From Bacteroidota bacterium (GTDB taxonomy: Bacteria > Bacteroidota > Bacteroidia > AKYH767-A > 2013-40CM-41-45), in contig JAYURB010000093.1 in the NCBI GenBank assembly GCA_043756425.1, positions 1-31,131 on the forward strand: a stretch of 31,131 nucleotides of DNA, read 5' to 3'. Position numbers and translations under genes: made by a program. The notes under the pieces were generated by a model, which ran no database searches, was not told the DNA's origin, and saw only the letters and a program-made list of their open reading frames with translations. Shown one piece after another: positions 19,359 to 26,410 of this stretch (positions are counted from its first letter, which is position 1; the number at the start of each line of letters is the position of its first letter).

Positions 19359-20261
19359 ATGAAAACCGAATACTATTTTTCGGAAAGTCCCGTTATTGAC
19401 CAGGTTGGAGTCGAAGAACGAATAGCCAGATTCAACAAAAGAAGCATAAAGAAAGAGTCCAAAATGGCCGCTTTAAAGCTTGCCATGAGTATGATGGATC
19501 TGACTACACTCGAAGCGAAGGATACTCCCGGAAAGGTAAAGCAATTGTGCACCAAAGCCATGTTTCCGCATGCTGCCATACCCGGTATTCCATCAGTTGC
19601 TGCAGTTTGTGTTTATCCAAATCTTGTAAGAGTCGCTAAAGAAGCTTTAAAAGGTTCCAAAGTAAAAGTTGCTGCCGTTGCTACTGCTTTCCCAAGCGGT
19701 ATGTCGAGCAGAAAGGTAAAGTTGGAAGAAACGCGCTGGGCTGTCAACGAAGGTGCTGATGAAATTGATATGGTCATTTCGCGCGGACATTTTCTTGCAG
19801 GAGAATATGCATATGTTTACGATGAAATTGCCGCTGTAAAAGAGGCCTGCGGTAAAGCGCACTTGAAAGTTATTCTGGAAACAGGGGAGTTAAGCACACT
19901 CGACAATGTCCGCCGTGCCAGTGATATTGCCATGCAGGCAGGAGGCGATTTCATTAAAACATCAACCGGAAAAATTCAGCCGGCAGCCACGCTTCCTGTT
20001 ACATTGGTAATGCTTGAAGCCATCAGAGATTTTTATTATGAAACCGGAAAAAAGATTGGAATGAAACCTGCGGGAGGAATTGCTACTGCCAAACTCGCCA
20101 TTCAGTACCTTGTTGTTTTACGGGAAACTCTCGGTAACGATTGGCTTACTCCTGATCTTTTTCGTTTCGGTGCCAGTTCACTTGCCAACGATTTATTAAT
20201 GCAAATCGTAAAGCAGCAAACCGGTGTTTACCAGAGTATCGATTATTTTTCAAAAGATTAA
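19359..20261 (+). CDS. deoC: Deoxyribose-phosphate aldolase, long form
   Basis: DLTTL, AAVCVYP, GADEIDMV, LKVILETGEL, Schiff-base FIKTSTGK, GMKPAGGI, FRFGASSL. Alternative start at 19344. Confidence 0.96.
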   Translation: MKTEYYFSESPVIDQVGVEERIARFNKRSIKKESKMAALKLAMSMMDLTTLEAKDTPGKVKQLCTKAMFPHAAIPGIPSVAAVCVYPNLVRVAKEALKGSKVKVAAVATAFPSGMSSRKVKLEETRWAVNEGADEIDMVISRGHFLAGEYAYVYDEIAAVKEACGKAHLKVILETGELSTLDNVRRASDIAMQAGGDFIKTSTGKIQPAATLPVTLVMLEAIRDFYYETGKKIGMKPAGGIATAKLAIQYLVVLRETLGNDWLTPDLFRFGASSLANDLLMQIVKQQTGVYQSIDYFSKD

Positions 20262-20288
20262 TAAAATTGTCAGTCAAGCATATTCGAA

Positions 20289-21782
20289 ATGGAAAAGGAT
20301 AAGATGAAAAAAAATAAAAAGGATGTTAAATTAAATTTTGATACAACCTGGTCCTATGCAGCCGCTCCTGAAAGCAGCGATCATGTGAAAATTAAAAATT
20401 CCTATGGCTTATTCATCAACGGTGAATTTACAGATCCATTATCCGGAAAGTATTTTGATACAATCAATCCGGCCACAGAGAAGAAAATTACTTCCGTAGC
20501 GGACGCAGGTCAAAAGGATGTAGACAAAGCCGTTGCTGCTGCACGTAATGCCTATGATAAGTACTGGAGTAAAATGCCGGCAAAAGAACGCGGTAAATAT
20601 ATTTTCCGTATTGCCAGAATTATCCAGGAACGCGCAAGAGAGTTAGCCGTAATAGAATCCCTTGATGGCGGTAAACCCATACGCGAATCACGAGACATTG
20701 ATGTGCCTCTAGCTGCTTCTCACTTTTTTTATTATGCCGGTTGGGCCGATAAAATTGAATATGCTGTTCCGGGTGCACGTGCAAAATCATTGGGTGTGGC
20801 CGGACAAATTATTCCATGGAATTTTCCATTGTTGATGGCTGCATGGAAAATAGCTCCCGCGCTTGCAGCAGGAAATACAGTGATTTTAAAGCCTGCTGAA
20901 ACAACTCCGCTGACTGCTTTAACCCTTGCAGAAATTATCCGGGATGCAGGATTGCCGCCGGGTGTAGTTAATATTATTACAGGAGCAGGAGGAACGGGTT
21001 CTGGTATGGTCAATCATCCGGGCATAGATAAAATTGCTTTTACAGGATCAACAGAAGTAGGAAAGATTATTCAAAAAGCATTGGCCGGTACATCGAAAAC
21101 ATATTCATTGGAACTTGGAGGAAAAGCCGCTAATATTATTTTTGAAGATGCTGCAATCGATCAGGCAGTAGAAGGAGTTGTGAATGGAATATTCTTTAAT
21201 CAGGGACACGTATGCTGTGCAGGATCGCGGTTATTCGTTCAGGAAAGTGTTGCTAAAAAAGTAATACGGAAACTGAAAGACCGGATGGAAACACTGATAG
21301 TTGGAGACCCGCTCGATAAAAATACGGATATAGGTGCCATCAATTCCAAAATGCAACTGGATAAAATAAAACAGTACATAAAAATAGGAATGAATGAAGG
21401 AGGCGAATGCTTTCAGACTTCCTGCGCGCTTCCTTCCAAAGGATATTGGCACAGACCTACTTTGTTTACAAATGTTTCTCAATCATCCCGCATTGTTCAG
21501 GAAGAGATCTTCGGACCGGTTTTGAGTATTCAGACATTCCGAACGGTCGAAGAAGTAATTGAGAAAGCAAACAATATTCCGTATGGCTTAAGCGGAGGAG
21601 TGTGGACCGATAAAGGATCTAAAATATTTAAAATGACTACTGCTCTGCGCGCCGGAGTAGTGTGGGCCAATACCTATAATAAATTTGATCCTACATCACC
21701 TTTCGGCGGTTATAAAGAAAGCGGTATGGGACGCGAAGGGGGATTGCACGGTTTAATGCCTTATCTGCACCTGGATAATTAA
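20289..21782 (+). CDS. Aldehyde dehydrogenase (catalytically complete)
   Basis: IIPWNFP, KPAETTP, FTGSTEVG, LELGGK (catalytic Glu), FNQGHVCCAGSR (catalytic Cys), EEIFGPV, PFGGYKESGMGRE. Confidence 0.96.
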   Translation: MEKDKMKKNKKDVKLNFDTTWSYAAAPESSDHVKIKNSYGLFINGEFTDPLSGKYFDTINPATEKKITSVADAGQKDVDKAVAAARNAYDKYWSKMPAKERGKYIFRIARIIQERARELAVIESLDGGKPIRESRDIDVPLAASHFFYYAGWADKIEYAVPGARAKSLGVAGQIIPWNFPLLMAAWKIAPALAAGNTVILKPAETTPLTALTLAEIIRDAGLPPGVVNIITGAGGTGSGMVNHPGIDKIAFTGSTEVGKIIQKALAGTSKTYSLELGGKAANIIFEDAAIDQAVEGVVNGIFFNQGHVCCAGSRLFVQESVAKKVIRKLKDRMETLIVGDPLDKNTDIGAINSKMQLDKIKQYIKIGMNEGGECFQTSCALPSKGYWHRPTLFTNVSQSSRIVQEEIFGPVLSIQTFRTVEEVIEKANNIPYGLSGGVWTDKGSKIFKMTTALRAGVVWANTYNKFDPTSPFGGYKESGMGREGGLHGLMPYLHLDN

Positions 21783-21784
21783 TA

Positions 21785-22732
21785 ATGAAAAACAAAATGG
21801 ACGCTATCGAAAAAAATAAATCAGTGGTTGACGTTGATACAAACGGTCAATCAAACGGTCATTCTTCCAAGGGAGAAAGACTCGATGTAATGAAAACATA
21901 TAAAATTTATATCGACGGAAAATTCCCCCGGACCGAATCGGGAAGATATTACCCTTTGCTTAATACGAACGGCAAGACAATAGCAAACATTTGTAATTCT
22001 TCACGCAAGGATTTTCGCGAAGCAGTTGTTGCAGCCCGCAAAGCACAGCAGTCGTGGTCTTCCCGAAGTGCCTATAATCGCGGACAAATCCTCTATCGCA
22101 TTGCAGAAATGCTGGAGGGACGACGAGAACAATTTATCACTGAATTAATAGAAACCGGTAGTACCAGGTCCCAGGCTGATAAAGAAGTGAATGTTTCAAT
22201 AGACCGTTTGGTTTATTATGCAGGATGGTGTGATAAATTTCAGCAGGTTTTCAGCGCAGTGAATCCCGTTGAGTCATCGCATTTTAATTTCTCCGTCCCT
22301 GAACCAATGGGTATAGTTTCCATAGTATCGGCAGAAAGTTCAGGACTTCTTGGATTAATTACAGCTATTGCACCTGCAATAATCGGAGGTAATACAGTTA
22401 TTGTTCTTGCTTCAACAACAAAGCCATTAAGTGCAATTACCTTTGGAGAAGTGCTTAACTCTTCCGATGTCTCTGCCGGCATTGTCAATATATTAACCGG
22501 TTATCGATCTGAATTGCTAACTCATTTTTCTACTCACATGGATGTAAATGCCATAGTATATTTCGGAAACAATCAGGAAGAAATTAAATTGATGAAAGAG
22601 TCTGCTTCTCTCAATGTAAAAAGAGTCTCTGTTTATTCTGAGAAGGAATTATCCGAAGAACGTTCTCAAAATCCATATAGAATTATGGACCTTCAGGAAA
22701 TAAAAACTACATGGCATCCGGTTGGACAATAA
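21785..22732 (+). CDS. ALDH-superfamily module lacking the catalytic domain (similar to the ALDH16 C-terminal module)
   Basis: Keeps the NAD-domain segments KTYKIYIDGKFPRTESGR, AYNRGQILYRIAEMLE, PEPMGIV, GGNTVIV, GIVNILTG and the terminal strand IKTTWHP. Has no PWN, ELGGK or catalytic Cys; 315 aa. Confidence 0.88.
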   Translation: MKNKMDAIEKNKSVVDVDTNGQSNGHSSKGERLDVMKTYKIYIDGKFPRTESGRYYPLLNTNGKTIANICNSSRKDFREAVVAARKAQQSWSSRSAYNRGQILYRIAEMLEGRREQFITELIETGSTRSQADKEVNVSIDRLVYYAGWCDKFQQVFSAVNPVESSHFNFSVPEPMGIVSIVSAESSGLLGLITAIAPAIIGGNTVIVLASTTKPLSAITFGEVLNSSDVSAGIVNILTGYRSELLTHFSTHMDVNAIVYFGNNQEEIKLMKESASLNVKRVSVYSEKELSEERSQNPYRIMDLQEIKTTWHPVGQ

Positions 22733-22742
22733 TACTAAACCT

Positions 22743-23333
22743 ATGTTAATTCATTTACAGGAACCCATTAGCCGTGAGGAAAGAACGAGATCTTTGCAGC
22801 AGAAGTCCTTTTTGGTATGGATGACAGGCCTCAGCGGATCGGGAAAAAGCACGTTGGCTTCCGCTTTAGAAAAACAATTATTTGAAAAAGGTTTAAAAAC
22901 ATATTTACTTGACGGTGACTTGATTCGAGCCGGCCTCAATAAGGACCTTGGTTTTTCTAAGGAAGACAGAAAAGAAAATATTAGGCGCATTGGTGAAGTT
23001 TGTAAATTAATGACCGATGCAGGATTAATTGTAATAACAGCATTTATTTCGCCTTTTCGGGCTGATCGTGATTTAGTACGGTCCATGTTTACGGCTTCAG
23101 ATTTTGCAGAGATATTTATAAATGCATCTCTTGAGGTTTGTGAAACCCGGGATGTAAAAGGATTGTATAACAAGGCCAGAAAAGGATTAATTCCTGAATT
23201 TACGGGGATTAGTTCGCCTTATGAAGAGCCGCTGAATCCCGAACTTACACTTAATACAGATAAGGAGCCGGAGGAAGTTTCTCTTTCAATATTGACGGAT
23301 TATATTCTTAAAAAAGTAAATATGGCGCTGTAA
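22743..23333 (+). CDS. cysC: Adenylyl-sulfate (APS) kinase
   Basis: P-loop GLSGSGKST, LDGDLIR, DLGFSKEDRKENIRR, AFISPF, FTGISSPYEEP. ATG 22743 preferred over TTG 22722. Confidence 0.96.
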   Translation: MLIHLQEPISREERTRSLQQKSFLVWMTGLSGSGKSTLASALEKQLFEKGLKTYLLDGDLIRAGLNKDLGFSKEDRKENIRRIGEVCKLMTDAGLIVITAFISPFRADRDLVRSMFTASDFAEIFINASLEVCETRDVKGLYNKARKGLIPEFTGISSPYEEPLNPELTLNTDKEPEEVSLSILTDYILKKVNMAL

Positions 23334-23366
23334 CGCTTTTAATCCTTATCAGTAAAAGATCATATT

Positions 23367-23374
23367 TAAATTGC
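23367..23374 (+). promoter_or_regulatory. Possible degenerate -7 element upstream of cysD
   Basis: TAAATTGC in the 77-bp cysC-cysD gap. Confidence 0.25.
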
Positions 23375-23410
23375 AGCAAATTTTCAATTTGCTTTAACAA
23401 AATTGTTGAC

Positions 23411-24316
23411 ATGTTAAGTTATAACCTTGATCATTTAAGCGAGCTGGAATCAGAAAGTATTTTTGTGATCAGGGAAGTAGCAGCTCAATTTCAAAATCCT
23501 GTTTTATTATTTAGCGGAGGAAAAGACTCTATCGTAGTTTCTCATCTTGCCCGCAAAGCATTTCATCCGGGAAAAACCCCCTTTCCTCTTATGCATATAG
23601 ACACCGGACATAATTTTCCGGAGACAATTCTTTTTCGCGATAAATGGATTAAAGATCAAGGTTCTGAGTTGATCATTCGATCGGTACAAAGTACCATTGA
23701 TATGGGCAGAGCGGTGGAGGAAAAAGGAAGAAATGCCAGCAGAAATGCTTTGCAGACCATAACACTTCTGGATGCAATAAAAGAATTTCGTTTCGATGCT
23801 GCCATTGGCGGAGCCAGAAGAGATGAAGAAAAGTCGAGAGCTAAAGAACGTTTCTTTTCTCATAGAGATGAGTTCGGACAATGGGAGCCTAGGCACCAGC
23901 GGCCGGAGTTGTGGAACATTTTCAACGGACATAAACACGGTGGAGAACATTTCAGAATATTTCCATTGAGTAATTGGACAGAACTTGATGTGTGGAATTA
24001 CATTTATCGTGAGAAAATTCCATTACCTGAATTATATTTTTCACACAAAAGGAAGGTCTTCCAACGCGACGGTGTTATATATGCTTTCGCTGATTTTATT
24101 AACCTTGCCGACAATGAGAAAACTGAAGATATGAATGTGCGTTTTCGAACCATTGGCGACATGACTTGTACTGGAGCCGTTGCAAGTAATGCTTCAACGG
24201 TTGAGGATATTATAAGAGAAATATTTGCTTCTACCGTTACAGAAAGAGGAACACGCATAGACGACAGGAAAACGGATTCAGCCATGGAAGATAGAAAACG
24301 TCAGGGCTATTTTTAA
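23411..24316 (+). CDS. cysD: Sulfate adenylyltransferase subunit 2
   Basis: PP-loop LLFSGGKDS, HIDTGHNF, GGARRDEEKSRAKER, RFRTIGDMTCTG, MEDRKRQGYF. Confidence 0.97.
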   Translation: MLSYNLDHLSELESESIFVIREVAAQFQNPVLLFSGGKDSIVVSHLARKAFHPGKTPFPLMHIDTGHNFPETILFRDKWIKDQGSELIIRSVQSTIDMGRAVEEKGRNASRNALQTITLLDAIKEFRFDAAIGGARRDEEKSRAKERFFSHRDEFGQWEPRHQRPELWNIFNGHKHGGEHFRIFPLSNWTELDVWNYIYREKIPLPELYFSHKRKVFQRDGVIYAFADFINLADNEKTEDMNVRFRTIGDMTCTGAVASNASTVEDIIREIFASTVTERGTRIDDRKTDSAMEDRKRQGYF

Positions 24317-24355
24317 TTTTTGAATTTAAGTCAAAACTTCTAACTACAAAGTATC

Positions 24356-25609
24356 ATGCCATTTCGGACTCATATAGAACTATTACGTTTCACTACGGCA
24401 GGAAGTGTTGACGATGGTAAAAGTACGCTCATTGGAAGATTGCTTATGGACACAAAAAGTCTGCAGGATGATCAGGTAGAAGCTATAAAAACATCCAGTC
24501 AGAAAAAAGGTCTGGATGACATTGACCTTTCCATGTTTACAGACGGACTTAAAGCCGAACGAGAACAAGGCATTACCATTGACGTTGCTTATCGTTATTT
24601 TACTACTATTAAAAGGAAGTTTATTATTGCTGATACTCCCGGGCATATACAATATACACGGAATATGATTACGGGAGCTTCAACAGCCAACCTTGCCTTG
24701 ATACTCATTGATGCACGCAAAGGTGTTGTGGAACAAACCAGACGCCATGCTTTTATTGCCAGTCTCCTAAGGATACCGCACATGGTTGTATGCATCAATA
24801 AAATGGACCTTGTCGACTACAAACAGGAAACCTATGAAAAAATAATTGAAGATTTCCGGGTATTTTCTTCAAGACTTGATGTAAAGGACATACAGTTTAT
24901 TCCAATCAGTGCCAAATTCGGAGATAACGTCGTTAACCGTTCGAATAATATGTCGTGGTATGAAGGAAGTACTCTGCTTTTTCATCTGGAGAACGTCCAT
25001 ATAAGCAGCGATCTAAATCATATTGACTGTCGTTTTCCTGTGCAATATGTAATTCGTACGCAGAATCAAAACGGATTACGAAGCTATGCAGGCCGTCTGG
25101 CCGGTGGTGTTTTTCGCCCGGGTGATAAAGTAATTGTTTTACCCTCCGGAGAGAAATCAAAAATTAAATCCATTGAATTGGCAGGAAAGGTTTTGGAGTA
25201 TGCATTTTCTCCCATGTCAGTAACACTAAATCTCGAGGATGAAATTGATGTAGGCCGGGGAGATATGATTGTCAGAGAAAATAATGTTCCACAAACCGGA
25301 CAGAGCCTGGATATAATGATTTGCTGGCTCAATGAAAAAGAGCTCAAGGCAGGTTCAAAATATATCTTGCGACATACATGCCGCGAAATGAATACGTGGG
25401 TAGATAAAATTCATTACAAGATTGACATATTAAATCTCCGAAGAATGGAAGGGGAGCAGTCGTTGGCTATGAATGACATTGGCCGAATTCAAATTCGTAC
25501 AACCCTGCCATTAGTCTATGACAGTTACAGAAGAAACAGGGAAACAGGCAGCATTATTTTTATTGACCCCCATACCAATGAAACTGTTGGAGCCGGAATG
25601 ATTATTTAA
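24356..25609 (+). CDS. cysN: Sulfate adenylyltransferase subunit 1 (GTPase, no fused CysC domain)
   Basis: TAGSVDDGKSTLIGRLL, EREQGITIDVAYRYF, DTPGH, INKMD, C-terminal TNETVGAGMI. Confidence 0.97.
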   Translation: MPFRTHIELLRFTTAGSVDDGKSTLIGRLLMDTKSLQDDQVEAIKTSSQKKGLDDIDLSMFTDGLKAEREQGITIDVAYRYFTTIKRKFIIADTPGHIQYTRNMITGASTANLALILIDARKGVVEQTRRHAFIASLLRIPHMVVCINKMDLVDYKQETYEKIIEDFRVFSSRLDVKDIQFIPISAKFGDNVVNRSNNMSWYEGSTLLFHLENVHISSDLNHIDCRFPVQYVIRTQNQNGLRSYAGRLAGGVFRPGDKVIVLPSGEKSKIKSIELAGKVLEYAFSPMSVTLNLEDEIDVGRGDMIVRENNVPQTGQSLDIMICWLNEKELKAGSKYILRHTCREMNTWVDKIHYKIDILNLRRMEGEQSLAMNDIGRIQIRTTLPLVYDSYRRNRETGSIIFIDPHTNETVGAGMII

Positions 25610-25618
25610 AAGCATATT

Positions 25619-26410
25619 GTGGAAAAAGAAAAAATCAGGGAATTAACAATGCTTGCGCTGGAGACAGCATTTGAAGCGGGCCAAAAAATTCTGGAAATAT
25701 ACAGTGATAAATTTACTGTTGATATAAAATCAGATGGTTCTCCATTGACAGCAGCTGATAAGGCTTCCCATGATACTATCGTTAGCAGACTTGCACACAC
25801 GAACCTGCCGGTATTAAGTGAAGAAGGCAAGGATATTCTATTTGACGAACGAAGTCAGTGGAGTTACTACTGGCTTGTAGATCCTCTTGATGGAACAAAG
25901 GAATTCATAAAGAGAAATGGAGAGTTTACTGTTAATATTGCTTTGATGGAATTTGGGGTACCTGTTTCAGGAGTAATTTTTCAGCCGGTAACAGGTATGG
26001 CTTTTGCGGGAATAGCAGGGGATGGATTATATAAATTCTCTGTCAACGAAAAGCCTTCGATTAATAGTAAAAGCAGAATAAAAATTGACCTGGCGCATGC
26101 GGAAAATCAAACGCGGGTTATTGCAAGCCGTTCGCATATGTCTGATAAAACGGAAGGATTTATAAATGAATTGCGCCTAAAAAGTAACAATGTCGAACTG
26201 GTTAATGCAGGTAGTTCATTAAAATTTTGTCTGCTTGCAGAGGGTAAAGCGGATATTTATCCTCGGTTCGCTCCAACCATGGAATGGGATACAGCAGCCG
26301 GACATGCACTTTTAAAAGCTGTCGGTAAAAATATTTATCTTTTTCCTTCCGGAGAAGAGATGACCTATAATAAACCTCATTTGATTAATGAATGGTTCAT
26401 TGCAAAGTAG
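25619..26410 (+). CDS. cysQ: PAP 3'(2'),5'-bisphosphate nucleotidase
   Basis: KSDGSPLTAAD, VLSEEG, LVDPLDGTKEFI, GSSLKFCLLAEGKADIYPR, EWDTAAG; GTG start. Confidence 0.95.
   Translation: MEKEKIRELTMLALETAFEAGQKILEIYSDKFTVDIKSDGSPLTAADKASHDTIVSRLAHTNLPVLSEEGKDILFDERSQWSYYWLVDPLDGTKEFIKRNGEFTVNIALMEFGVPVSGVIFQPVTGMAFAGIAGDGLYKFSVNEKPSINSKSRIKIDLAHAENQTRVIASRSHMSDKTEGFINELRLKSNNVELVNAGSSLKFCLLAEGKADIYPRFAPTMEWDTAAGHALLKAVGKNIYLFPSGEEMTYNKPHLINEWFIAK

Follow-up and report, generated by a model that had tools for sequence, protein, structure and literature searches.

A 31,131-nucleotide stretch of DNA from a sediment Bacteroidota genome (contig JAYURB010000093.1 of assembly GCA_043756425.1; referred to below as the window) was found to carry three consecutive plus-strand open reading frames (ORFs) in the order deoC, ALDHN, and ALDHC. 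These encode a long-form deoxyribose-phosphate aldolase (DERA) and the two halves of an aldehyde dehydrogenase (ALDH) of the ALDH16 family (Table 1). The comparative evidence strongly supports both the identification of ALDHN and ALDHC as a natural two-gene ALDH16 and the conclusion that DeoC and ALDH16 form a functional unit. On balance, we favor the interpretation that the locus is one three-gene module in which a two-subunit ALDH16, likely bound to DERA, oxidizes the acetaldehyde derived from the DERA reaction.

ALDH16 has a crystal structure, yet no physiological substrate, partner, or pathway is known for it, and its human member is a gout-linked pseudoenzyme (PMC12041015, PMC8160307). 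The tie to DERA gives this orphan family a testable job. The window presents the family at its most dissected: the extra domain is encoded apart from the catalytic part as a protein of its own, so that its role becomes directly testable. A literature search (ALDH16A1 with DERA or deoxyribose; deoC-ALDH clusters) found no paper stating a DERA-ALDH16 association and returned proteomic lists only. Relative to the literature searched, the locus is a split variant of the known ALDH16 family together with an undescribed obligate partner.

The split ALDH16

Table 1. Features of the deoC-ALDH16 locus, with positions numbered along the window
Feature	Product or content	Position	Strand	Basis
deoC	Long-form (type A) deoxyribose-phosphate aldolase, 305 aa	19344..20261	+	TIGR00126; best PDB match E. 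coli DERA
ALDHN	ALDH16 catalytic subunit, complete aldehyde dehydrogenase, 497 aa	20289..21782	+	6MVR residues 8-474
ALDHC	ALDH16 C-terminal-module subunit, no catalytic domain, 315 aa	21785..22732	+	Pfam Aldedh part match; 6MVR residues 499-766
ALDHN/ALDHC gene boundary	TAA-TA-ATG	21780..21787	+	Sequence read; corresponds to the interdomain linker of fused ALDH16

ALDHN covers positions 6-457 of the 461 in the Pfam Aldedh profile. In a search of all PDB sequences, its best match was the ALDH16 of Loktanella (6MVR; E value of 2.6e-156), with ALDH1A2 and ALDH2 behind, and alignment to 6MVR showed that the catalytic Asn (PWNFP), Glu (LELGGK), and Cys (VCCAGSR) are all retained, together with the FTGST NAD motif. 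ALDHC covers only positions 15-233 of the same profile, and its best PDB match was the remaining part of 6MVR (domain E value of 2.8e-37). Since the ALDHN alignment stops at residue 474 of 6MVR and that of ALDHC begins at residue 499, the cut between the two genes falls in the interdomain linker.

The AlphaFold2 model of ALDHC (predicted local distance difference test [pLDDT] score of 88.5; predicted template modeling [pTM] score of 0.84) showed disorder over residues 1-28, then an alpha/beta domain of Rossmann-like fold and a last strand at residues 304-312. When this model was used as a Foldseek query, the Loktanella structures 6MVS, 6MVU, and 6MVR were the top matches, with a template modeling (TM) score of 0.81 over 289-291 columns, and ordinary ALDHs scored 0.74-0.75 over about 255 columns. 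The naturally split ALDH16 proposed in the initial annotation of this DNA was thus borne out, with each gene best matching one half of 6MVR and the structural comparison in agreement. The same annotation had described ALDHC as keeping the NAD-binding and oligomerization parts of an ALDH while lacking the catalytic domain. The Rossmann-type fold, the oligomerization strand, and the missing catalytic domain were all found, but the NAD-binding residues have been lost: in the 6MVR alignment and the consensus, the equivalents of the ribose-binding pair Lys192/Glu195 are L/T, and the GSTxxG motif is absent. This agrees with the published description of the second ALDH16 module as a nonfunctional cofactor domain (PMC8160307, PMC12041015). 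Across 41 aligned C-terminal modules (C-modules) of both ALDH16 lineages, 24 residues were invariant, most of them charged or aromatic. They include R49, K75, D76, R78, R85, W91, E108, D150, K151, H251, D253, K307, and W310 and are candidates for an interface or a ligand site.

The gene boundary reads GAT AAT TAA TA ATG, with the ALDHN stop codon at 21780-21782, 2 bp, and an ATG at 21785 in a changed frame, confirming the layout originally described of a full ALDH followed 2 bp later by a 315-aa ALDH module. A second ATG at 21797 would give a 311-aa form, which is the version found in databases. The TAA-TA-ATG arrangement fits a possible translational coupling of ALDHN and ALDHC. Because a stop codon, 2 bp, and a new frame separate the modules, we filed the locus as a split variant rather than as a canonical ALDH16.

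The split form was found to be widespread. In 34 of 41 genomes of the same taxonomic order, ALDHC was present as a separate ORF of ~300 aa with a full ALDH just upstream; this set includes the unpublished genome G038, which carries the module, and without it the count is 33 of 40 with the pattern unchanged. When 251 evenly sampled Bacteroidota genomes were examined, the type A C-module occurred in 60 and was always a separate ORF of about 290-360 aa. A scan of one genome per species yielded 80 loci, with split forms in Bacteroidota, Balneolaceae, Ignavibacteria, Marinimicrobia, Verrucomicrobiota, Planctomycetota, Actinomycetota, Acidobacteriota, Myxococcota, and others, and one fused form in Thermoanaerobaculia. 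Fused proteins of 750-860 aa shared up to 56% identity with ALDHC. Fused and split forms were interleaved in the C-module tree, with at least six changes of state; since this tree was rooted on the paralogous ALDH half, whose very long branch makes the root unreliable, no ancestral state is claimed. The C-modules of three metagenome-assembled genomes (MAGs), L096 (labeled Synechococcus), L062 (Spirochaetia), and L044 (Woeseiaceae), nested within Bacteroidota clades, which could reflect binning contamination or recent transfer. In three genomes of the Bacteroidota family f28 (G053, G080, and G260), deoC, ALDHN, and ALDHC were located on three different contigs and yet all were retained, indicating that the split lets the ALDH16 halves become genetically unlinked.

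With only 2 bp and a frame change between the two ORFs, the short gene might be taken for a pseudogene remnant or for an assembly or frameshift artifact of one ALDH16 gene. This explanation was rejected on the comparative data and has a negligible chance of being correct. The split was present in 60 of 60 type A Bacteroidota genomes and also in Actinomycetota, Planctomycetota, Verrucomicrobiota, and others, with spacers that differ, and the halves are unlinked in some genomes. In addition, ALDHC is under strong purifying selection. Ratios of nonsynonymous to synonymous substitution rates (dN/dS, or omega) were calculated by the Nei-Gojobori method for pairs with unsaturated dS from several phyla. 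The value for ALDHC was 0.040 against its nearest relative (dS of 0.29) and 0.02-0.14 in twelve further pairs, in the same range as ALDHN (0.012-0.096) and deoC (0.015-0.13). Relaxed selection on the short gene, which the initial annotation had named as an outcome that would speak against its proposal, was therefore not seen.

Pairing of ALDH16 with a long-form DERA

DERA cleaves 2-deoxyribose-5-phosphate (dR5P) into glyceraldehyde-3-phosphate and acetaldehyde. In an NCBIfam profile search, the DeoC of the window scored 193.1 bits against the TIGR00126 equivalog (cut-off of 117.3), and its best PDB match had an E value of 2e-50. The equivalents of E. coli Asp102, Lys167, and Lys201 are kept in the motifs ADEID, FIKTSTGK, and MKPAGG, respectively. 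In addition, the protein has an N-terminal extension of ~35 aa and a C-terminal tail, TGxYQSxDYFSxD, and both features are conserved among the DERAs linked to ALDH16. Its identity to animal DERAs is 44-51% in alignments that span the N-terminal extension. Elsewhere, in a search for long proteins, the fusion partners of long DERAs included PGM/PMM-type mutase domains, a DeoB-type domain, and PNP. The retained catalytic Asp and two Lys residues, together with these mutase and PNP fusions, support deoxyribose phosphate as the probable substrate of the long DERAs. Among the fusions were P0266, P0313, and about 50 more proteins of ~840-890 aa, for example from Acidimicrobiia, in which a four-domain PGM/PMM-type phosphomutase is joined to a long-form DERA; these are presumably phosphopentomutase-aldolase fusions. 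A third long DeoC subtype was observed in six Bacteroidota genomes (L114-L117, L119, and L120). It showed 42-50% identity, a different N-terminal extension, and a short C-terminal tail ending in ETKYF, and there was no adjacent ALDH16.

The occurrence of ALDH16 was then compared with that of the matching long DERA subtype, using cut-offs of E <= 1e-116 for type A in Bacteroidota and E <= 1e-118 for the second subtype in Pseudomonadota. Within the 41 genomes of the order, the 34 with the C-module were the same 34 that carried this DeoC, and the same 7 lacked both. In the sample of 251 Bacteroidota, an ALDH16 C-module was present in 62 genomes, as a split form in 60 and a fused form in 2, and these were exactly the 62 with the matching long DERA. 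The DERA and ALDH16 genes were adjacent in 59 of the 62, and in 57 of the 60 split loci deoC and ALDH16 lay on one contig within about 3 kb. The two genomes with the fused form, G184 and G193, carried an animal-like second DERA subtype directly beside an ALDH16 of the second lineage. Among 301 sampled Pseudomonadota, the 26 genomes with ALDH16 were again the same 26 that had the matching DERA. The 25 with fused ALDH16 corresponded exactly to the 25 with the second DERA subtype, the two genes being adjacent in 24 of them and interrupted by a contig end in the remaining one, and a single genome carried a split ALDH16 with its own DERA. E. coli-type DeoC was found in 13 of the sampled Pseudomonadota genomes, none of which had ALDH16. 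The DERA subtype follows the ALDH16 subtype, type A accompanying the split form and type B the fused form, and the whole ALDH16 family, split or fused, is tied to one DERA clade that includes the animal enzyme.

Gene order was conserved as well. The order deoC-ALDHN-ALDHC was observed in more than 12 phyla, with examples in Marinimicrobia, Ignavibacteria, Balneolaceae, Verrucomicrobiota, Planctomycetota, Actinomycetota, Acidobacteriota, Myxococcota, and others. When all ORFs of 100 loci were clustered, no other neighbor was conserved across phyla.

The search for long proteins containing this DeoC also returned many DeoC+ALDH fusions of ~800 aa and, in four clusters (P0235, from a Rhodospirillales MAG, and P0252, P0261, and P0291), chains of 1130-1184 aa comprising DeoC, ALDH, and C-module. 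These triple fusions follow the operon order, and natural fusions were found in every combination. The AlphaFold2 model of P0252 (mean pLDDT of 87.3; pTM of 0.85) was compact, with a structured connector between the DERA and ALDH parts. As DERA makes up 27% of this chain, a pTM of 0.85 would be hard to reach unless its placement were confident. Taken as Rosetta-stone fusions, and together with the compact model, these proteins point to a likely physical complex in which ALDH16 would dock on DeoC. The functional coupling of deoC and ALDH16 suggested by the initial annotation was strongly supported by perfect co-occurrence in two phylum-wide samples, conserved order, the retention of unlinked genes, and natural fusions.

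Two eukaryotic sequences were also noted. In the Artemia franciscana gene model P0244, a DERA domain and an ALDH16-like domain are combined, which could represent fused or adjacent genes in an animal. The ALDH16-like protein P0008 of Bradysia odoriphaga is 67% identical to ALDHN of the window, which may be due to contamination or gene transfer. A protein atlas search matched only bacterial DeoC clusters and was uninformative on eukaryotes.

Directly downstream of ALDHC, at 22722-26410 of the window, are cysC, cysD, cysN, and cysQ, genes for 3'-phosphoadenosine-5'-phosphosulfate (PAPS) synthesis and 3'-phosphoadenosine-5'-phosphate (PAP) removal. The cysC ORF starts at a TTG and shares 11 bp with the end of ALDHC. 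Such a neighborhood was seen only within the genus (L001-L012) and was lacking in other lineages, and a functional link between deoC/ALDH16 and the cys genes was rejected for this reason. A scan for sigma-70 promoters and terminators gave results at the level of shuffled sequence, with a scan model that does not cover Bacteroidota promoters.

Proposed function and alternative explanations

In the mechanism that we propose, ALDHN and ALDHC would form a heterodimer that is a two-chain version of the intramolecular pseudo-dimer of single-chain ALDH16, whose dimers resemble an ALDH tetramer. ALDHC would provide the partner surface that is given by the second subunit in ordinary ALDH dimers and would itself contain neither a cofactor site nor a catalytic site. 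The resulting two-subunit ALDH16 would work together with the long-form DERA from the gene immediately upstream, most probably while bound to it. DERA would cleave dR5P to glyceraldehyde-3-phosphate and acetaldehyde, and ALDHN would oxidize the acetaldehyde to acetate with NAD(P)+, which would pull the unfavorable cleavage equilibrium forward and stop the reactive aldehyde from escaping. Subunit assembly, docking on DERA, acetaldehyde as the substrate, and any channeling are the steps that we infer. Acetaldehyde was chosen because of the DERA chemistry, because the nearest structures to ALDHN after ALDH16 in the PDB search were ALDH1 and ALDH2, and because the Loktanella ALDH16 has an aromatic pocket and oxidizes hexanal (PMC12041015).

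Several observations weigh against this interpretation. The sole ALDH16 to have been assayed, that of Loktanella, is reported to act on medium-chain aldehydes, and the reviews contain no acetaldehyde data (PMC12041015, PMC8160307). A source of dR5P was sought in the genus and none was found: a DeoB-type phosphopentomutase (TIGR01696) and a pyrimidine-nucleoside phosphorylase (Pdp; TIGR02644) were absent from the genome of the window (G000) and from five near-complete congeners (G007, G008, G011, G016, and G018), of four congeners, a single one had a DNPH1-like gene, which the genome of the window lacked, and the latter was also without a close PGM2-type mutase. For the predicted DERA-ALDH16 association, pTM is only an indirect measure. 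Finally, vertebrate ALDH16A1 persists without its catalytic residues, suggesting that the role of the family may be partly noncatalytic. Other complete genomes bearing the triad do carry the DeoB-type phosphopentomutase (4 of 5) and Pdp (5 of 5). Although the genus is without DeoB and Pdp, purifying selection on its deoC and ALDH16 genes is strong.

Operon linkage and co-occurrence by themselves require pathway coupling only, and linkage between deoC and the ALDH genes is absent in several families. DERA and ALDH16 might then be consecutive, co-regulated enzymes that form no complex, with acetaldehyde passing between them by free diffusion. We regard this as unlikely, since single-chain DERA-ALDH16 fusions occur in at least four protein clusters alongside the many DeoC+ALDH fusions, the DERA subtype tracks the ALDH16 subtype, and a compact fold is predicted for the triple fusion; moreover, human ALDH16A1 and DERA both persist through density-gradient purification of adeno-associated virus (AAV) (PMC4554548). 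The enzyme might alternatively act on another aldehyde related to the DERA reaction, as two aldehydes are released by DERA and a physiological substrate is not known for any ALDH16 (PMC12041015). Glyceraldehyde-3-phosphate could be oxidized to 3-phosphoglycerate in a GAPN-like manner, or deoxyribose(-5-phosphate), in its open-chain aldehyde form, could be oxidized to a deoxyribonate, with DERA on a branch or running in reverse. The classical DeoB/Pdp route to dR5P is missing in the genus, which is in keeping with such a role and makes the physiological flux uncertain. ALDHN is nonetheless closest to ALDH1/ALDH2-type enzymes, the ALDH16 pocket is aromatic and accepts hexanal, and no GAPN-type similarity stood out in the NCBIfam search, leaving us to consider a different aldehyde quite improbable.

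A further explanation, to which we assign only a slight chance, is that ALDH16 serves mainly as a structural or regulatory partner that stabilizes or activates the aldolase, dehydrogenase activity being secondary. It would account for the retention of a catalytically dead ALDH16A1 in vertebrates (PMC12041015, PMC8160307), and the 24 invariant, mostly charged or aromatic residues of ALDHC, which have no cofactor role, would fit it as well. However, the catalytic and NAD motifs of bacterial ALDHN are strictly retained, with an omega of about 0.02-0.05, indicating that catalysis is under selection in bacteria. The coupled cleavage and oxidation of dR5P-derived acetaldehyde by a DERA-bound ALDH16 remains the interpretation that we prefer.

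Human ALDH16A1 and comparison with known systems

ALDH16A1 is conserved in vertebrates despite the loss of its catalytic residues, and it has no known function (PMC12041015, PMC8160307). The initial annotation had described the human protein as noncatalytic, in agreement with these reviews, and had stated that it co-purifies with DERA; the latter could not be confirmed, as no paper was found stating such a complex. When AAV from HEK-293 cells was purified on either cesium chloride (CsCl) or iodixanol gradients, the host proteins named for the reproducible bands that the two methods shared were ALDH16A1, DERA, and ferritins H and L (PMC4554548). This co-contamination would be expected of a large, dense ALDH16A1-DERA particle and constitutes circumstantial evidence, not proof. 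The comparative data suggest DERA as a candidate partner of human ALDH16A1. We tentatively extend this to the idea, about which we are more doubtful than confident, that every ALDH16, the catalytically dead human ALDH16A1 included, is obligately and physically partnered with long-form DERA in a large, defined particle, coupling cleavage to oxidation in bacteria and acting as a DERA-regulating scaffold in vertebrates. If this is true, the gout- and urate-associated ALDH16A1 variant would fall in nucleoside-sugar catabolism.

Among the closest known systems is ALDH16 itself (CDD cd07111), represented by the Loktanella sp. structures 6MVR, 6MVS, 6MVT, and 6MVU (Liu & Tanner 2019, as summarized in PMC12041015 and PMC8160307). 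In both cases, a catalytic ALDH is combined with a Rossmann-like module that lacks the catalytic domain and the NAD residues, and the catalytic Asn, Glu, and Cys are present in ALDHN as they are in the bacterial Loktanella enzyme. The described ALDH16 proteins are single chains, whereas that of the window consists of two polypeptides, cut at the linker and encoded in different frames 2 bp apart. The window enzyme belongs to the type A lineage and the Loktanella and animal-like enzymes to type B. A physiological partner or pathway for ALDH16 is not described in the reviews (PMC12041015, PMC8160307); the ALDH16 of the window is linked to DERA.

The C-terminal domain of type B and type C PutA is likewise an additional Rossmann-like domain of ALDH origin, which does not bind NAD and stands in for a dimer partner (PMC12041015), and in this it resembles ALDHC, an extra ALDH-derived module without NAD-binding residues. 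Unlike ALDHC, the PutA domain belongs to proline catabolism, is always fused, and has no link to DERA. The DeoC of the window shares with E. coli DERA (PDB 1JCL and 5EKY; deoCABD operon) the features of a class I aldolase, namely the Schiff-base Lys, the second Lys, and the Asp. It differs from the E. coli enzyme in its ~35-aa N-terminal extension and distinct C-terminal tail, which it has in common with animal DERAs, and in its genetic partners, which are the ALDH16 genes rather than deoA, deoB, and deoD.

In the DmpG-DmpF and BphI-BphJ systems, an acetaldehyde-releasing aldolase is physically paired with an acetaldehyde-consuming dehydrogenase, and the tunnel between them has been structurally proven. 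Their aldolase is a class II pyruvate aldolase and their dehydrogenase a CoA-acylating enzyme from another superfamily, in contrast to the window, where a class I aldolase is paired genetically with a nonacylating enzyme of the ALDH superfamily. The genetic pairing of an aldolase with a dehydrogenase is the likeness between them, and it provides the analogy behind the suggestion that acetaldehyde may be channeled from DERA to ALDH16.

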